Shown: positions 2,640 through 31,640 of the stretch, piece by piece | Layout of the letters: each line of letters opens with the position of its first letter | Position numbering within the stretch: position 1 is the first letter of the stretch | Source of the DNA: Candidatus Heimdallarchaeum aukensis | Lineage (GTDB): Archaea; Asgardarchaeota; Heimdallarchaeia; Heimdallarchaeales; Heimdallarchaeaceae | Direction: 5' to 3' | Assembly: GCA_021513695.1 (NCBI GenBank) | Contig: CP084166.1 | Span: 1,600,001 to 1,664,000 of the forward strand | Length of the DNA stretch: 64,000 nucleotides | Program-made: the position numbers and the translations under genes | Notes under the pieces: generated by a model | The model's input: only the letters and a program-made list of their open reading frames with translations | What the model was told of the DNA's origin: nothing | Databases searched by the model: none

Positions 2640-2800
2640 CTTTTCTTATTCTAAACTTTTTTCTTCTCCTTTAATTATACTTTTTTTCCCTATAAAAATT
2701 CCTCACTTTTTCTTCTCTCCCTCCCTCTTCCTTCCTTCTTTCCTTTCTTTTTTCGTTGCACTCTTCCTCAATTTTTATAAATTTACGTAAAAAAGTAAGT
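2640..2800. repeat. pyrimidine-rich (CT) low-complexity tract with a CCTATAAAAA motif, upstream of tnpB-1
   Basis: The + strand here is runs of c/t, e.g. cttctctccctccctcttccttccttctttcctttctttttt. The architecture is similar to 31546-31640. Confidence 0.7.
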
Positions 2801-2947
2801 CATTTATTATGCTTTTCTTTAAAGTTTTTACAGTAAGTGCTGAATGTTTCTATTTCATTTATCCCTGAAAGAGGACAATAGTATAAAAAAGTGTAAAAAA
2901 CAATAATTAAGAAAATATTTATAGTTTAACAAAAATAAAAAACATCA

Positions 2948-3895
2948 ATGTGCTGCAAGATAAAAGAAGTTCATGCAAAAATAAGACAATATATCAACAA
3001 AACTCCAGTGATGACTTCAACTACACTAAATAAACTAACTAAAGCGGAATGCTACTTAAAGTGTGAAAACTTCCAAAAAATGGGTGCATTTAAGATTAGG
3101 GGAGCAGTTAATGCCATACTAAATCTAACTGAAGAACAAAAAAAGAAAGGAGTAATAACGCACAGTTCAGGAAATCATGCTCAGGCCTTATCTCTTGCAG
3201 CTTCTTTTTTTAATGTTAAAGCCACAATTGTTATGCCTGAAAATGCACCAAAGGTTAAAATTGAAGCAACCAGAAATTACGGCGGAGAAGTTATTTTTTG
3301 TGGAAACAAACCCTTGGATAGAGAAAAGAAAACAGAAGAATTAATTAAGCAACACGATTATACATTAATTCATCCTTCAAATAATTGGGACATTATTCGT
3401 GGAGCGGGAACAGCAGCCTATGAATTGATACATGAGATCCAAGATCTAGATTATGTTTTTGCTCCTGTTGGAGGAGGAGGGCTATTAAGTGGAACATCTT
3501 TAGCAGTTAAAGAATTATCACCAAAAACAAAAGTGATTGGTGTTGAACCTGAAAAAGCAGATGATGCTTTTAGATCTATAAGAGACAATAAGATTTACCC
3601 CTCAATTAATCCAGACACAATAGCAGATGGCCTTAGAACTTCATTAGGAAATATTACTTTTTCTGTAATAAGAGACAATGTTGATAAAATCATTTTGGTA
3701 ACAGAAGAAGAAATAGTAAAAGCAATGGAATTTCTGTGGTCTCGTATGAAATTAGTTGTTGAACCCTCTGGTGCTGTTTCATTAGCTGGATTATTAAAAC
3801 AAAAAGAAAGTATAAAAAACAAACGAGTAGGAGCAATCATTTCAGGCGGAAATATTGATTTGACCGATTTCTTTGCAAAATTTAAGGGATTGTAA
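2948..3895 (+). CDS. PLP-dependent serine/threonine dehydratase family protein (fold type II; serine racemase/threonine ammonia-lyase-like)
   Basis: MGAFKIRGA carries the PLP-lysine motif. HSSGNHAQA and the glycine-rich PVGGGGLLSG loop are present. The protein is 315 aa. Confidence 0.75.
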   Translation: MCCKIKEVHAKIRQYINKTPVMTSTTLNKLTKAECYLKCENFQKMGAFKIRGAVNAILNLTEEQKKKGVITHSSGNHAQALSLAASFFNVKATIVMPENAPKVKIEATRNYGGEVIFCGNKPLDREKKTEELIKQHDYTLIHPSNNWDIIRGAGTAAYELIHEIQDLDYVFAPVGGGGLLSGTSLAVKELSPKTKVIGVEPEKADDAFRSIRDNKIYPSINPDTIADGLRTSLGNITFSVIRDNVDKIILVTEEEIVKAMEFLWSRMKLVVEPSGAVSLAGLLKQKESIKNKRVGAIISGGNIDLTDFFAKFKGL

Positions 3896-3909: not shown

Positions 3910-5439
3910 GTGAAAGTTATGGAAGAATCTTCAAAAAAGCCAATCGCATTTATACCTACACCAAAAGAGATAGCTTCTCTAATGGTTTCTTTGATAACAA
4001 AATCTAAAACTGACAGTATATTAGATCCGGGTTGTGGAAAAGGTATTTTCATTGAATGTTTAAAGGAACAGAACTTCACTAACATAACAGGAGTAGAATT
4101 AAACAAAGAATTGTACAATTATTGTAAAAATAAATTCTCTCAAAATAATATAGTTAACCACGATTTTCTTGATTTGAGCGAAGATAACAAATTTGATGTA
4201 ATCATCGGTAACCCACCCTATACCCATTATAATTCTCTTCCTACAAGTATGAGAGAAAAAGTTTATTCAATTACAAAAACAAGAGAAACAGATATTTATT
4301 ATGCTTTTATCATAAAAGCTGTAAAATTATTGAAGGATGAAGGCGAACTTATTTTTATTGTACCATACAGTTTTTTTTATAATACATTTGCAAAAACAGT
4401 AAGAGAGATTCTTGCAGAAAATGGTTTTTTTGAGATAATAATAGATTTAGATGAAGTAAATTTATTTGAAGGAGAGTTACCAGAAACAATAATTTTTAAG
4501 TTTAAGAAGGTAAAGGAGAAAAGAGATACAGTTGTTCTAAAGATTAAAACAAGGTTAACAAAACCAGCACAAGTTGCTGAAAGAGCACTAGAGAGTTTAG
4601 AAAAAAGAAGAGAAAATGAACTTTTTTCCTATTTCATAAAAAAATTTGATTATAAAGCAGAAACATGGTCAACTTTTCCAGATATTGAAGTCAGTTTTTT
4701 TAACAGACTATCAGAATTAGCTTTTGTTGGAGTTGGAATGGTTTCAGGCTATGATAAAGTCTTTAGACTAGAAGAAAAAACAATTAAATTACTAAACGAT
4801 GAAGAACAAAAAAGAGTTTTTCCATTTGTAAAAGGGGAAAACTGTAAGGGATATTTTATTCAAGGTTGCGTATATTATTTCCTACTAGATAATAACATAA
4901 AATCAGAGGAAGAACTATGTAAAAAATACCCCAATTTTTATTCTATGATTTTGTCTTCTAAAGAAAAAATGATTAAAAGGTATTTACCAAAAAACGGCAA
5001 ATGGTTTCATTGGCAAGCTCTTAGAAATTATGAAACATACAGAAAGAGGTTAGATGCTCCCAAGATTTTTGTTCCTACATTGGATAGAAGTAAGATAAAC
5101 CGTTTCAGCCTTACCTATGAAAAATTGTTTCCTTCAGGAGATGTTATTACAATCATTCCTTACAAAGATGTTGATCCCTTCTTCCTTCTAGGTTATTTGA
5201 ATAGTGACTTCTTTAGGAGATATTATTTTTCATATGGAGGAAAAAGAGGAAACAGAGTTTCGTATACACAACGATTATTATCTAACGCTAAAATACCCAA
5301 ATTTTCTGAGAAAATAAAAAAAATAATTTCATCTGAAGCCAAAAAGATCTTTAATCAAAAGTCATTTCAAAATTGTAGGGAAAAGATAGAAAGAACCATA
5401 CTCAAATCTTTCGAGGAAAATCTTTTTGATTCAGTATAG
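3910..5439 (+). CDS. N6-adenine-specific DNA methyltransferase, gamma class (M.TaqI/Eco57I-like) with a C-terminal target-recognition domain
   Basis: Motif X-like IPTPKEIASLMV is followed by motif I DPGCGKGIF and then motif IV GNPPY. This order is typical of gamma-class amino-MTases. The protein is 509 aa. Confidence 0.8.
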   Translation: MKVMEESSKKPIAFIPTPKEIASLMVSLITKSKTDSILDPGCGKGIFIECLKEQNFTNITGVELNKELYNYCKNKFSQNNIVNHDFLDLSEDNKFDVIIGNPPYTHYNSLPTSMREKVYSITKTRETDIYYAFIIKAVKLLKDEGELIFIVPYSFFYNTFAKTVREILAENGFFEIIIDLDEVNLFEGELPETIIFKFKKVKEKRDTVVLKIKTRLTKPAQVAERALESLEKRRENELFSYFIKKFDYKAETWSTFPDIEVSFFNRLSELAFVGVGMVSGYDKVFRLEEKTIKLLNDEEQKRVFPFVKGENCKGYFIQGCVYYFLLDNNIKSEEELCKKYPNFYSMILSSKEKMIKRYLPKNGKWFHWQALRNYETYRKRLDAPKIFVPTLDRSKINRFSLTYEKLFPSGDVITIIPYKDVDPFFLLGYLNSDFFRRYYFSYGGKRGNRVSYTQRLLSNAKIPKFSEKIKKIISSEAKKIFNQKSFQNCREKIERTILKSFEENLFDSV

Positions 5440-5472
5440 TAATTATTTTAAATAAAAACACATTGTGCCTAT

Positions 5473-6114
5473 ATGACCTCTAGAACTTCAACGAACGGTC
5501 TATTTTTAGTTATTGAAGGAATCGATGGTGTAGGTAAAACTACTCAAGCAAAGAAGCTAGTTGAGTTCCTAAAGTCCAAGAAGATAAAAGCTGAATATAC
5601 AACTGAGCCTACTCACTGGAGCATTTATGGAAAAAAGTTGAGAGAGAGTTTTTTTGCCCCAGAAAGACTATCTGTTGAAGAAGAATTTAGACTTTTTTTA
5701 GAAGATAGAAAGGAACATATTGCAAAAGAAGTACTACCACTTATAGAGCAAGAGACAATAGTTGTATGTGATAGATATTACTTTTCATCTGCTGCATATC
5801 AGGGATCTAGAGGACTAGATTGGAAATATATTCTAGAAGAAAATATGAAGGTTGTTCCACCTCCAGATATTACATTTTTAATTGACATTCCTGTAGAAAA
5901 AGCAATAGATAGAATATCTAATGGAAGAGCGGGAAAAATCAATACCTTTGAGAAAAGAGAGAATCTCATCAAAGTAAGGAAAATTTACCATAAGATTGCT
6001 CAAGAGTTCAGTGATTTAATAGTCGTAATAGATGGAACAGATAGTATAGAAGCAGTTCATGAGTTAATAATTAAGAACTTAAAACCTAAACTTTTGGAAA
6101 AAAACTTAATTTAA
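5473..6114 (+). CDS. tmk: thymidylate kinase
   Basis: P-loop IEGIDGVGKTTQ and the DRY motif (CDRYYFS) are present. The protein is 213 aa. Confidence 0.85.
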   Translation: MTSRTSTNGLFLVIEGIDGVGKTTQAKKLVEFLKSKKIKAEYTTEPTHWSIYGKKLRESFFAPERLSVEEEFRLFLEDRKEHIAKEVLPLIEQETIVVCDRYYFSSAAYQGSRGLDWKYILEENMKVVPPPDITFLIDIPVEKAIDRISNGRAGKINTFEKRENLIKVRKIYHKIAQEFSDLIVVIDGTDSIEAVHELIIKNLKPKLLEKNLI

Positions 6115-26506: not shown

Positions 26507-26730
26507 ACCCTTCTTTATATTGTTCAGAACAAAATTTCTTTCTTTTTGAATTAAAATATAGCAATAATGTTATTCAAGTTAGTATCTTTGATCTTACTCT
26601 TATTGCTTTTTCTAATCTTTCTTTACTCCCTTTCACACCTATTACTTGAATTTTTCTTTTTTTTCTATAAAATTCTCAATTATTTTTCTTCTTTCCTAAA
26701 CTTTATAAAAATTATACAAAAAATTCAATC

Positions 26731-27936
26731 ATGAAAATATCAAGTCGAGCTTCTAGTTTTAGTTATGCAATCAGAGACATTCTATCGGTAGCTAAAGAAG
26801 TGGAAGAAAAAGGTCATAAATTAATAAAATTAAATATCGGAGACCCTATTAAGTATGACTTTAAAACTCCTGATATCTTAACTGAACAATTAAAATTTGC
26901 AAAAACAGAAAATTATAATTTTTATGCTGATTCTCAGGGTTTGCTTGAATTTAGAGAGCAAATTGCGAATTATGAAAATAGAAAACATGGATTAAATGTT
27001 TCAGAAGAAAACGTGTTAGCTACTTCAGGGGTAAGTGAAGGCATTGCTTTTACATTTATGGCCTTCACAAATGAGGGAGATGATGTTTTAATTCCAGGAA
27101 TACATTATCCTAGTTATTCTGGAAATTCTTCAATCTATGGCACTAATTCAATATTTTATAAGACGGTAGTTGAAGAAAACTTTTATCCTGACCCAGATGA
27201 GATTCGTTCTCTCATGACAGAAAAAACGAAATTGGTATTTCTTAATACGCCTAATAATCCTACTGGAAGTGTTTATCCTGAAAAAGTAATTAAAGAGATT
27301 GTTGATATAGTTGGAGAATATGACGCGTGTATCGTCTCTGACGAAACTTACGATCAACTAATCTTAGATGATGGACTCAAACACATTCCAACTGCAAAAG
27401 TGGCAAAAGATGTTCCAGTAATAGCTTACAATGGTTTTAGCAAAGTTTTTTTGGCTCCAGGATGGAGATTGGGGTATCTTTACGTTCATGACCCAGAAGG
27501 AAAGATAGAAGAACCTTGGGAAGGAATAAATAAGTTAGCTAGAATTCGTTTATGTGCTTCAACCCCCTTGCAAAAAGCAGGAGCAGAGGCCTTAAAAATT
27601 GACCAAAGCGTTTACTTACCAGAAGTCATCCAAGATTTAAGAAAAAGAAGAGATTTAATGTATAATCGATTAAAAGAAATGGATGGTGTTTCTGTTTATA
27701 AACCCCAAGCAGCGTTTTACATCTTTCCTGTACTTGATATGGAACAATTCACATGGAAAAATGATAAAGAGTTTGTAATAGATTTTCTAAAAAAGAAACA
27801 TGTGTTAACAGTCTTTGGAACTGGTTTTGGTCCTTATGGAAAAAATGGTTTCCGTATGGTCTTTTTGCCTACACCAGAAGAGATAGACGAATCAATGAAC
27901 AGGCTTGAGGAATTGTTAAAAGAAAATAGAAAATAA
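26731..27936 (+). CDS. class I PLP aminotransferase (alanine/aspartate aminotransferase-like)
   Basis: LNIGDP, NTPNNPTG and YNGFSKVFLAPGWRLGY (the SK lysine) are present. Confidence 0.75.
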   Translation: MKISSRASSFSYAIRDILSVAKEVEEKGHKLIKLNIGDPIKYDFKTPDILTEQLKFAKTENYNFYADSQGLLEFREQIANYENRKHGLNVSEENVLATSGVSEGIAFTFMAFTNEGDDVLIPGIHYPSYSGNSSIYGTNSIFYKTVVEENFYPDPDEIRSLMTEKTKLVFLNTPNNPTGSVYPEKVIKEIVDIVGEYDACIVSDETYDQLILDDGLKHIPTAKVAKDVPVIAYNGFSKVFLAPGWRLGYLYVHDPEGKIEEPWEGINKLARIRLCASTPLQKAGAEALKIDQSVYLPEVIQDLRKRRDLMYNRLKEMDGVSVYKPQAAFYIFPVLDMEQFTWKNDKEFVIDFLKKKHVLTVFGTGFGPYGKNGFRMVFLPTPEEIDESMNRLEELLKENRK

Positions 27937-28936: not shown

Positions 28937-30172
28937 TTAAGCTCCAAACTTTTCTACCAAGTGCAACTCATTTAATAACACTTTCATTAGATGTTTTCCT
29001 TTAATTCTTCCTAATCCACCATTATACGCATAACGTTCTCCAAAATACTTAACATTATCTTTTACGCAAGTTGGAGAATAAACAATTAGTGGAACTGGAT
29101 CAGCAGAGTGGTCTTTAAAGGAACAAGGAGTACTATGATCCCCAGAAATCATTACAACTAATTCTTCATCAAAGTTTTCAGGAAGAAATCTGTAAAGCTC
29201 TTTGTCAACTTTTTCAATGAATTCGACTTTTCCGTTATAATTTCCATCGTGCCCATAATTATCTGTTCCCTTAAAATGTAAAAATATGAAATCATGAGTT
29301 TTTAGAAGGTTAAAAGCAGTTTCAGCTTTTAAACGTACATCAGTGTTTGTTCCTCCTGTCATTCCATCTTTTTCAACTATTTCCATTCCGAGCATTCGAG
29401 CAACACCTTTGTAAAGACCTCCACCCGCTACACATGCTGTTTGCAACCCATATTCTTTTTCAAAGTTTGGCAATTTAGGGACTCTTCCAGCACCTCTGAT
29501 TAGCAAGTAATTTGCAGGTAATTTACCGGCTTCAATTCTTTGTTCATTTAGGGGGGAATGAGACAAAATTTCGTGAGATTTCCTTGCAAACTCAGATAAC
29601 ACCCTAGCAGTTTTTTGTGCTGATTCTGAATCATCTAAAGCTTTAAACGAATAAGGAGCTTTTCCTTCTACTTTAGGATCATTTGCTGAAACTTTATCTG
29701 ATAGATTTTCACCACGAAGAACTAGCGCAGCCCTATGTTCAGTACCTGCTTTCATGAGAAATTGAACATCTTCTATCTTCATTCCATTTAATTGCTTAAT
29801 GAACTCTTCTGTTCCTTCTTTTATACGCCCAGCACGACGATCAATAATAATTCCTTTTTCATCCATCGTGGCAAAATTCACTCTAAAAGCAATATCTCCC
29901 TCTTTTACAGTCAAACCAACACCTGAAGCTTCAAAAGGTCCGCGTCCTGTATAATACTGAAAAGGATCAACTCCAAATAGTGCAAGATGAGCAGTATCAC
30001 TTCCTGGCGTCTGTCCAGTTTCAATTACGTCCATGATTCCAGTTACACCCAGTTCAGCAAACTTATCCATATTTGGTGTTTTTGCATACTCTAAGGGAGT
30101 TTTACCGTCTAATTCAGGAATTGGACGATCACCTAATCCATCAAGGATAATAAATAATAATTTTCCAGTCAT
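28937..30172 (-). CDS. apgM: 2,3-bisphosphoglycerate-independent phosphoglycerate mutase, archaeal type
   Basis: [28 protein letters not shown] and the size (411 aa) are typical of ApgM. Confidence 0.85.
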
Positions 30173-30246
30173 TAATCAACTTGATTTTTGTACAAAAATA
30201 AATTTTGTGCAAGAATCTTGCTCTCGGAAAGCACTAAAAGAAACTA

Positions 30247-31545
30247 TCACGAAGGAGAGTTTAGATTAGGCGAACCGGTCATAGAGCCAGAGGAGAGAGT
30301 TGATAAACCCTCGACCACGGAAACTGGAAAAAAGAACTTTTTCCGCTCACGTGGGACAGGAAAATAAGAAAAAAAGGAAGAAGAGAGAGGGAGAGGAAGA
30401 GAACCAAAAAAGAGAAGAGAAAGGTTGCGAGAGGCGTTGCGGTCAGAGTGAACTTCAAAACCACAAGAAACGCAACGAAAAAGGTCACGAGTGACACGGG
30501 AGGAAGGAGAAACGTGACCGCAACGAGAGCAACGTTGACTGGTATAATGAGGGGGGACAGGAAGAACAGGAATATGCTTTTCTTCAGCAAGAGAGGTCAA
30601 GAAAGAGAGGAAAAAGCGATAAGACCAGCGGTTGAGAGAGCGACGAATACGTTCTCTTCCTCTAAAATTCTTTTTAGTCCATTTTTTTCTTATTTTACTA
30701 ATTTCTTCAATTACTATCGCAGAGCGTGTAACTACTGCTAAATCTACAATCTCGTGAGCTATTTGCTCACATCGGGTTTTGTTATAATTTTTTTCTTTAT
30801 TTTTCAATCTTTTTAACGCACGCCGTGCTTTTTCACTTCCTTTATCAGCATACGATTGTAGCTTTCTTCTTCTTTCATTAAACTTATGTTGTTTCCAGGC
30901 AAGATCTTTTCCGAGGTAACGTTCAATTAGAGTAAAAGAGGGATGATTAAGTGTTATTGCGGCAGCTATCTTTCTACCTACGTCTACTCCTATCGTTCCT
31001 TCTACTTGTTGAGGAGGAAAAAGGTTAAGTTCTTTACGTAAAATTATGTGCTCTACCCACTTTCTTTCCCGTTTAAAGACTTTACAACTATGCTCTTTCC
31101 ATCCTTCTCTGCGGTATGCTTCTACTCTTCTCCATCCTCCATCTAGTTTGATAGGTATAGCTATCCTTTCTTTCATCGGAGAAATAGCTAAAACAGGGTT
31201 CCCTCTCTCTGTTTCTTTTATTCCTCCACTCCTGGGAAAGTTGAACTCCAACGGTAAATTATCGAACTTTTTCACTTTCCTTGCCGCATAAACTCTTCTC
31301 TGTACCGCTTCTTGCACTTGACTGTGTAACTTCACATATTTGAACCTCTTATATACTAAATGATGGAACTCTTTTCCTGATTTCGCTTTTTCCTTGAACA
31401 CTATTATTTTATTTGCCATCTCTGTCGCTTTTTTCTGTGCTCTCTGCATGTATGCTCTTTTTCTTCTACTCGGGAGAATATTCACTTTTACTGTTTTTTC
31501 TTTCCACTTCCTTTTCTTTCCTTTTCTTCTCCCTTTCGTTTTCAT
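30247..31545 (-). CDS. tnpB: TnpB-like RuvC/zinc-finger nuclease
   Basis: RuvC-I reads IGVDVGRK and RuvC-II reads AIVIEEISK. The zinc finger reads CSRCGHVS...FRCVSCGFEVHSDRNASRNL. The K/R-rich N-terminus and low-complexity C-terminal tail probably reflect read-through of the low-complexity ends. Confidence 0.8.
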   Translation of the reverse strand: MKTKGRRKGKKRKWKEKTVKVNILPSRRKRAYMQRAQKKATEMANKIIVFKEKAKSGKEFHHLVYKRFKYVKLHSQVQEAVQRRVYAARKVKKFDNLPLEFNFPRSGGIKETERGNPVLAISPMKERIAIPIKLDGGWRRVEAYRREGWKEHSCKVFKRERKWVEHIILRKELNLFPPQQVEGTIGVDVGRKIAAAITLNHPSFTLIERYLGKDLAWKQHKFNERRRKLQSYADKGSEKARRALKRLKNKEKNYNKTRCEQIAHEIVDLAVVTRSAIVIEEISKIRKKWTKKNFRGRERIRRSLNRWSYRFFLSFLTSLAEEKHIPVLPVPPHYTSQRCSRCGHVSPSSRVTRDLFRCVSCGFEVHSDRNASRNLSLLFFGSLPLPLSSSFFSYFPVPRERKKFFFPVSVVEGLSTLSSGSMTGSPNLNSPS

Positions 31546-31640
31546 TCCTTCTTCTTACTTTTTTTTCCTATATAAACCCCTCTCCTCTCTCTTTCCTTTT
31601 CTTTTCTTTCCTCTTTTTTTACAAAAAACTTGTTCATGAG
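31546..31640. repeat. pyrimidine-rich low-complexity tract with a CCTATATAAA motif upstream of tnpB-2
   Basis: The sequence is ttttttcctatataaacccctctcctctctctttccttttcttttctttcctcttttttt. It spawns the spurious ORFs 31394-31649. Confidence 0.7.

Follow-up and report, generated by a model that had tools for sequence, protein, structure and literature searches.

What is the common layout found in front of two tnpB genes in a 64-kb stretch of the Candidatus Heimdallarchaeum aukensis genome, and does it belong to the genes, to mobile elements that carry them, or to chance? Both genes are preceded by a T-run, a TATA-like word and a long C/T tract that terminates in a second T-run, and a preliminary description of this DNA attributed the layout to one insertion sequence (IS) family whose end carries its own archaeal promoter. 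We analysed the whole stretch (64,000 nt, hereafter the window, whose positions serve as coordinates throughout unless a locus is named) and compared both loci with related copies. The layout probably represents the left (5′) ends of two distantly related mobile elements with tnpB as their only gene, each end providing its own promoter and containing the tract as a tolerated spacer.

The host is an Asgard archaeon with a circular genome of 3.08 Mb, 32% G+C and many A/T runs. The genome paper lists 11 transposase/integrase families with up to 27 copies and does not cover ends and promoters (PMC8813620), and our literature search found these element ends and promoters nowhere described. A protein of H. 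aukensis was identical to TnpB-2, and an exact-match look-up with TnpB-1 gave no entry. Clusters of TnpB-1 at 90% held 18 sequences in H. aukensis and 31 in H. endolithica. Element 1, of family 1, was compared with 12 full and 2 partial copies from H. endolithica; the 13 family-1 copies referred to below are the 12 full copies and that of the window, to which we added a relative with 43% identity (locus L030). For element 2, of family 2, about 12 loci with 47-62% protein identity were available. Rfam and tRNA scans of the window gave no matches.

Both left-end strings were present where the preliminary description had placed them (Table 1). The TATA-like 10-mer by itself was not significant (2 observed against 1.04 expected in the window), and together with its T-run it matched exactly at these two sites only. 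The 49- and 44-nt C/T tracts were the two longest homopyrimidine runs of the window; in shuffled windows the longest run averaged 16.5 nt with a maximum of 25 nt, and 5 of 5 runs of at least 25 nt fell inside the two elements, which cover 5% of the window. On the sense strand the order in both elements is purine tract, TATA box, A-run and ATG, such that the first T-run described earlier is the complement of a conserved A-run between the TATA box and the predicted transcription start site (TSS), and the second corresponds to an A-run that bounds the tract distally; in element 2 this A-run forms the A7 arm of a palindrome in the terminal inverted repeat (TIR). Two details needed adjustment. The boxes had been placed 24-65 nt before the start codons and lie, counted from the first base of the box, at 70 nt (tnpB-1) and 31 nt (tnpB-2), and of the purine-rich stretches said to follow them, a separate region between box and ATG does exist, whereas the long tract lies upstream of the box.

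The limits of element 1 were set by homology among the 13 copies, which begins and ends sharply. After a flanking CATG, the family-1 left end consists of cTTcTATTTTTTACGTAA-TTTACA..., the purine tract, TTTTTATAGGG with A7, a purine-rich stretch and ATG, and every copy terminates at the right in ...TTACGTAAAAAAGTAAATCATG, followed by unrelated flank. The flank position occupied by AATG in the window is CATG in 11 of 12 H. endolithica copies. At locus L011 the element splits an ABC-transporter-like gene, the 310-aa frame of which is restored when one CATG is retained and not when zero or two are. Given CATG at both junctions and one CATG in the reconstructed empty site, insertion after CATG, a 4-bp/2-bp duplication and a recombination core fit family 1 equally. 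The family-2 left end comprises a TCATG flank, A-N4-ACTTTTTTGTACA, the spacer, TTTWWATAGG with an A-run, and ATG; the right end is ...TTTTGTACAAAAATCAAGTTGAT, and flanks are unrelated between loci. No TCATG duplication was seen at the right flanks of the aligned family-2 loci, and this confinement of the word to the left flank is consistent with insertion 3′ of a set word without duplication.

Inverted repeats bound both elements, and similar repeats occurred at locus L009 (22 nt, 82% complementary) and at L030 (31 nt, 81%; 1423-1453 and 3158-3188 of that locus), the latter with CATG outermost on both arms. Each left TIR combines a T-run with a palindrome of 6-8 bp (TACGTA or TGTACA), and the pattern CATG-N6-T6-RYRTA occurred 4 times in the window against 0.17 expected. 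Single-stranded DNA folds of the ends were mostly within the range of shuffled sequences, the outlier being the left end of element 1 in the window (z = −3.6), in which the terminal T-run pairs with an A-run of the tract. No tnpA was found inside the elements, no Y1 transposase was identified, a search of the window and of the flanks of the compared loci turned up neither a DDE nor any other transposase with these TIRs, and the same sequences contained no solo right ends or further end motifs of an autonomous partner besides one relic left end. Ends and gene content indicate that both are TIR-bounded, tnpB-only, non-autonomous mobile elements. Since their TIRs are unlike IS200/IS605 and IS607 and no partner transposase was found, we label them as TIR-bounded tnpB-only elements.

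The identification of both neighbouring open reading frames (ORFs) as tnpB was borne out, as each matched PF07282, the Cas12f1-like TNB domain of TnpB. TnpB-1 and TnpB-2 share 25% identity, in the C-terminal half only. In an alignment of 21 sequences, family 1 had Gly without exception where the canonical RuvC-II glutamate would stand (G347), together with an invariant E400 six residues before C407, and its RuvC-I motif was D-L-G and not DPG. As judged from these residues, the family-1 active site is the known C-terminally shifted glutamate or RIIr arrangement. A Fanzor-like ('pro-Fanzor') identity of TnpB-1 was considered and ruled out, given the D-L-G motif and the occurrence of a shifted Glu alone in thousands of TnpBs. 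Members of the family seem to occur in Asgard archaea only (Heimdall, Thor and Promethearchaeota). The attribution of both elements to one IS family can be kept only in part: the 25% identity and differing RuvC-II speak against it, while the ends are of the same kind (CATG flank, T-run with 6-8 bp palindrome, TIRs), and the two are the same kind of element and not one family. For a Thor-type family-1 homologue (locus L032, 1440-1500) the called start probably lies 57 nt downstream of the true one, as an in-frame ATG further upstream restores the conserved MGRSKG... N-terminus; the direct repeat AAGTTTATAACC is present twice upstream.

We next consider the TATA-like box, for which TTTWWATAGG was kept in 12 of the 13 close family-1 copies, in L030, at every family-2 locus and in the relic. 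The preliminary description had proposed that copies lacking the motif would point to coincidence of low-complexity sequence, and for the TATA box the aligned copies do not show such a pattern. The boxes of the window are of the TTTAWATA type, 8 bp long and A/T-rich (TTTTTATA and TTTATATA). Archaeal promoters have an 8-bp TATA box centred at about −27, a B recognition element (BRE) at about −33 and an A/T-rich element at about −10 (PMC5316973), and TATA-like boxes were seen at −26 to −31 of several host genes in the window. Among family-2 loci with a defined start, 8 of 9 had the box beginning 27-31 nt before ATG, and its distance from the TIR motif ranged over 20-47 nt in this family. This near-constant distance to ATG and variable distance to the TIR suggest that the box is placed relative to the gene and not to the element tip. 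Both this placement and the absence of the box from the right end speak against binding by a transposase. Directly before the box, 6-8 nt consist mainly of purines when read in the direction of tnpB (GAGAGGGG, GTGAGGAA and AAGAGAC) and are pyrimidine-rich on the other strand, which favors the tnpB direction, although they are rich in G and depart from the A-rich consensus. The earlier proposal of an element-borne archaeal promoter therefore agrees with conservation across copies and with the family-2 spacing, and the box, which belongs to the mobile element, is a well-supported candidate for its own archaeal promoter, as is expected for insertion sequences.

Read on the sense strand, each left end would be ordered as a CATG-type flank word, a TIR of 22-25 nt, the homopurine spacer and the core promoter TTTWWATAGG(G) with its A-run and with a BRE-like run of purines directly before it. 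In element 2 the start codon would come next, some 21 nt beyond the box, and in element 1 a variable purine-rich stretch would extend to ATG. TBP and TFB would bind the TATA box and BRE, and transcription by RNA polymerase would begin some 27 nt beyond the centre of the box, at about 31545 and about 2667. The box-to-ATG spacing and the archaeal −27 rule predict a leaderless mRNA for element 2, with a TSS at about the A of ATG (31545); the predicted TSS of element 1 lies near 2667-2668, and its leader would be about 40 nt long. Such a transcript would yield TnpB plus omega-RNA through read-through and processing, and a promoter inside the element would make expression independent of the insertion site. 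Locus L010 (~2440-2470) has a deletion that takes out the purine tract and TATA box with tnpB still open, and is probably a copy without a promoter. The promoter cores of the two families are near-identical over about 30 nt (GAGGGG-TTTWTATAGG-R-AAAAAAAGTAA; L009 2409-2445 compared with 31556-31590 of the window), a likeness that, despite the 25% protein identity, could reflect convergence on an optimal promoter or module exchange between elements.

The C/T-rich tract, counted earlier as part of the shared end architecture, could not be upheld as such. Within subfamily A of family 1 the longest pure run was 39-52 nt, and near-identical copies differed by indels of GA-rich blocks with TIR and TATA box unchanged; in subfamily B the tract is replaced by GTATGGATG and an A-rich run of 18-19 nt, and in L030 it is absent (longest purine run 11 nt). 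The family-2 spacer was 100% purine in the window copy, 87% in H. endolithica-type copies, and of mixed sequence outside the Heimdallarchaeum lineage (49-60% purine with longest runs of 3-6 nt in L017, L019, L021, L025 and L027). Because its length varies among near-identical copies and it is absent outside the Heimdallarchaeum lineage, the tract does not define the end. The likeliest reading is a slippage-prone low-complexity expansion tolerated upstream of the promoter, at most modulatory.

Tract growth and shrinkage by slippage would be part of a general homopurine tendency of Heimdallarchaeum elements, affecting the spacer, the stretch before ATG and the first codons. H. endolithica had 24 homopurine runs of at least 25 nt in 22 kb of element DNA versus 2 in 55 kb of flank, and both flank runs (locus L008) proved on inspection not to be tnpB ends. 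Further runs lay in the stretch leading up to ATG, among the first codons and at a single site deeper in coding sequence; purines made up 71-72% of the first 300 nt of both ORFs versus 55% over whole ORFs, and the family-1 stretch from the end of the box to ATG was 87-96% purine. In a family-2 subgroup, loci L024 and L028 (P0016 and P0017) had much expanded Lys/Glu/Arg-rich N-termini encoded by homopurine DNA and TATA-to-ATG gaps of about 66-84 nt, indicating that low-complexity expansion reaches into coding sequence. A specific pairing of the 5′ homopurine with the 3′ homopyrimidine tracts was considered; they were only 71-81% complementary, a value that random purine and pyrimidine runs may reach as well, and in family 1 a local omega-RNA hairpin accounts for the 3′ run.

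Several observations weigh against a promoter joined to a merely tolerated spacer. The most distant family-1 relatives, L031 and L032, had no TTTWWATA word within 300 nt. The family-1 TATA-to-ATG distance was 70-92 nt across copies (38 nt in L030), which limits the argument from promoter-to-gene spacing to family 2. The bases directly before the box are rich in G (GAGGGG or GAGGAA), in contrast to the A-rich BRE of Thermococcales, and the comparison with host promoters is based on crude ORF calls for 43 genes. Finally, pure homopurine tracts occur in both families of one genus and not in host intergenic DNA, which a neutral origin alone leaves unexplained.

This last point bears on the reading of the tract as a selected cis-element, acting through H-DNA (triplex) formation or histone exclusion that leaves the neighbouring promoter accessible, insulation of the promoter from its insertion context, termination of antisense or read-through transcripts via the T-runs of the antisense strand, or as a length-tunable rheostat of expression in each copy. 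The runs are element-specific and extreme in length, are flanked by A/T runs, and differ in length among otherwise near-identical copies, as a tunable module would. They also occupy the same place, between TIR and TATA box, in two families with 25%-identical proteins, a parallel that somewhat favors a functional role such as triplex, chromatin insulator, terminator or rheostat. We nevertheless consider selection on the tract unlikely, as its sequence is not conserved, family-1 subfamily B and the family members outside Heimdallarchaeum retain the TATA box with an ordinary spacer or none, and similar runs before ATG and in coding sequence suggest a general compositional or slippage tendency. 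A bolder version, rated lower still as a rather improbable combination, is that both TnpB lineages independently gained a selected length-tunable homopurine module (a triplex or histone-excluding insulator or rheostat) and are moved by an enzyme of neither Y1 nor serine type; if true, these TIR-bounded, CATG-associated elements would correspond in Asgard archaea to the Fanzor-carrying TIR transposons of eukaryotes, and family 1 has the shifted RuvC-II glutamate as well. The homopurine tract would be of importance only if functional.

A different function for TTTWWATAGG and its A-run, as a subterminal transposase-binding site in place of a promoter, would suit the position of the motif, no more than about 100 nt from the element tip, and its conservation in both families. 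We think this very improbable, since ends that are otherwise inverted repeats have no copy of the motif on the right, the family-2 distance is fixed to ATG and loose to the TIR, and the motif fits the archaeal TATA consensus and spacing. Least credible of all is a coincidence of two unrelated low-complexity AT/CT-rich upstream regions, to which the near-expected count of the 10-mer alone and the abundance of A/T runs in a low-G+C genome lend some plausibility; the layout is repeated in more than 25 independent insertions and the relic, the tracts are twice as long as the longest run of any shuffle, and the TIR motif is about 20-fold above expectation. Copy alignments refute this reading.

On the 3′ side, both elements have structured blocks adjoining the right end that are the expected, presumptive omega-RNA scaffolds. 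Family 1 had 79% mean column identity over about 300 nt, and its conserved block of about 270 nt gave 68 predicted consensus pairs, 5 with compensatory changes, and the family-2 block had 25 predicted pairs, 10 with compensatory changes. Runs of opposite polarity to the 5′ tracts were found near the 3′ ends (1061-1082 and 1088-1110 in element 1; 30366-30403, 38 nt, in element 2). That of element 1 is a purine/pyrimidine hairpin inside the conserved block, a local omega-RNA hairpin, and that of element 2 is a homopyrimidine run upstream of the 3′ hairpins, found, as the 5′ tract is, in the Heimdallarchaeum copy only. The last ~60 codons of tnpB-2 (30247-30444) overlap covarying RNA hairpins, and conservation of the C-terminal tail of TnpB-2 may stem from the omega-RNA and not from the protein.

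IS200/IS605 elements are not known to have terminal inverted repeats. The elements described here are instead bounded by inverted repeats of 22-31 nt and gave no convincing match to the asymmetric ends with subterminal hairpins of that family, and they share with it a TnpB with split RuvC and zinc finger and a structured guide RNA at the right end, as indicated by Pfam matches, residues and covariation. Their closest likeness there is to the IS1341 group (tnpB-only IS200/IS605), including the elements of Halobacterium salinarum (PMC4615843) and the solo tnpB SisTnpB1 of Sulfolobus islandicus (bioRxiv 10.1101/2023.03.06.531077), in which tnpB is likewise the sole gene. As in that group, the 3′ end of tnpB is overlapped by a presumptive structured RNA that adjoins the right end, comparable to the 3′ sense-overlapping RNAs of Halobacterium salinarum (PMC4615843), the left flank has a conserved word of 4-5 nt as a possible target site or target-adjacent motif (TAM), and the elements are multi-copy and would have to be mobilised in trans. 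IS607 elements, with a serine-recombinase TnpA and a TnpB, also combine TnpB with a right-end guide RNA, and IS607-type recombination at a short matching core could account for CATG (or AT) at both junctions; PMC6188088 describes that family as having neither TIRs nor target-site duplications, unlike the TIR-bounded elements here. No serine recombinase was seen with the elements, and no search aimed at a recombinase partner was made.

In a survey of TnpBs, DDE-associated members had symmetrical inverted-repeat ends, and solo TnpBs were found inside such ends (Altae-Tran et al. 2023, PMC10691335). The present elements resemble them in having TIRs around tnpB and the 3′ end of tnpB within ~250 bp of the element end, in the apparent mobilisation of solo copies in trans, and, for family 1, in the Glu-to-Gly RuvC-II rearrangement with alternative glutamate of the 'RIIr' clades. 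They differ in that no DDE transposase accompanies these TIRs in the window or locus flanks, and with respect to target-site duplication family 1 has CATG on both sides and family 2 has no duplication. The candidate promoters resemble archaeal BRE-TATA leaderless promoters such as those of Thermococcus onnurineus (PMC5316973) in the 8-bp A/T-rich box, the purine-rich upstream stretch and the A-rich region between box and start, and differ from them in an upstream stretch that is G-rich and not A-rich and in the longer gap to ATG of family 1.

In the only Heimdallarchaeum genomes that have been circularised, both TnpB families exist in multiple copies and are apparently active. What the analysis yields for these two families, which seem confined to Asgard archaea, is a set of element boundaries, two candidate TAMs (CATG and TCATG), presumptive guide-RNA scaffolds and a likely native promoter. 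These are groundwork for testing the nucleases, including one with a shifted catalytic glutamate, for reading Asgard promoter architecture, and, in the archaea most closely related to eukaryotes, for finding the transposase that moves TIR-bounded TnpB elements.

Table 1 Features of the two tnpB elements and the relic end, in window positions.
Feature	Position	Strand	Remarks
Element 1, tnpB-only, family 1, ~1.89 kb	912-2800	−	From right-end terminal CATG (912-915) to left-end first base (2800)
Element 1 left flank, AATG	2801-2804	−	Candidate target site / TAM, from copy alignment
Element 1 left TIR, ATGACTTACTTTTTTACGTAAATTT on the sense strand	2779-2803		Pairs with 913-937; 25 nt, 88% complementary
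Element 1 pure C/T tract (49 nt), homopurine on the sense strand	2706-2754	+ (C/T), − (purine)	Window's longest run; terminates in T6; hypervariable spacer upstream of TATA box
BRE-like purine-rich GTGAGGAA	2699-2706	−	Directly upstream of tnpB-1 box
Candidate core promoter of tnpB-1	2681-2698	−	TTTTTATAGGG (2688-2698) + A7 (2681-2687); kept in 12/13 copies and L030
Element 1 TATA-like word CCTATAAAAA	2689-2698	+	
Element 1 T-run	2681-2687	+	
Purine-rich (87%) stretch between tnpB-1 promoter and ATG	2629-2680	−	Variable length among copies
tnpB-1 ORF, 484 aa	1174-2628	−	PF07282; RuvC-I D242, G347, alternative E400, RuvC-III D434, CxxC...CxxC zinc finger
Element 1 structured 3′ block, presumptive omega-RNA scaffold	912-1220	−	Includes hairpin 1061-1110 and right TIR 913-937
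Element 2, tnpB-only, family 2, 1.46 kb	30175-31634	−	From alignments of family-2 loci
Element 2 left flank, TCATG	31635-31639	−	Candidate target site / TAM; kept at all independent family-2 insertions
Element 2 left TIR, T6-GTA-A7 core	31614-31637		Pairs with 30175-30198; 24 nt, 79% complementary
Element 2 pure C/T tract (44 nt), homopurine on the sense strand	31577-31620	+ (C/T), − (purine)	Terminates in T7; between left TIR and TATA box
Candidate core promoter of tnpB-2	31559-31576	−	TTTATATAGG (31567-31576) + A8 (31559-31566)
Element 2 TATA-like word CCTATATAAA	31567-31576	+	
Element 2 T-run	31559-31566	+	
tnpB-2 ORF, 432 aa	30247-31545	−	PF07282; canonical RuvC-II glutamate E280; 31-nt homopurine run 31507-31537 in 5′ coding part
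Element 2 structured 3′ block, presumptive omega-RNA scaffold	30175-30444	−	Overlaps ORF tail; right TIR 30175-30198
Relic left end of a third, truncated family-2 element	26594-26734	−	68% identity over 155 nt to L016, E = 1e-15 (blastn)

The relic retains a TCATG flank (26730-26734), T6-GTATAA, a short purine tract, TTTTATAG with A8 and about 40 nt of decayed tnpB 5′ coding sequence; it is also a hit of the CATG-N6-T6-RYRTA pattern, and a search for a matching right end found none. Its CATG holds the ATG of a divergent aminotransferase-like gene (26731-27936, + strand), the TATA-like box of which lies at −29 and within the relic, such that what was once the element end seems to provide this gene with a leaderless promoter facing outward. 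Outward TATA-like words were also present 27-28 nt from the flank ATG in the intact family-2 left ends of L016, L019, L021 and L025.

At the other side of element 2, the right end halts 2 nt before the start codon of apgM (30170-30172), severing this gene from its former upstream region, and a TATA-like word, TTTATTTTT, lies inside the right end about 30 nt before the apgM ATG. At L025/L026 the right end likewise adjoins the start of the next co-oriented gene. The L008 flank (4650-5490 of that locus) contained tandem GAATGCCAGAAAAGA repeats in an ORF, a tRNA-like GC-rich stretch (~4989-5085) and a 58-nt (GAAAAA)n-like homopurine run, and may correspond to the integration region next to a tRNA that has been described for the HeimV1 provirus.

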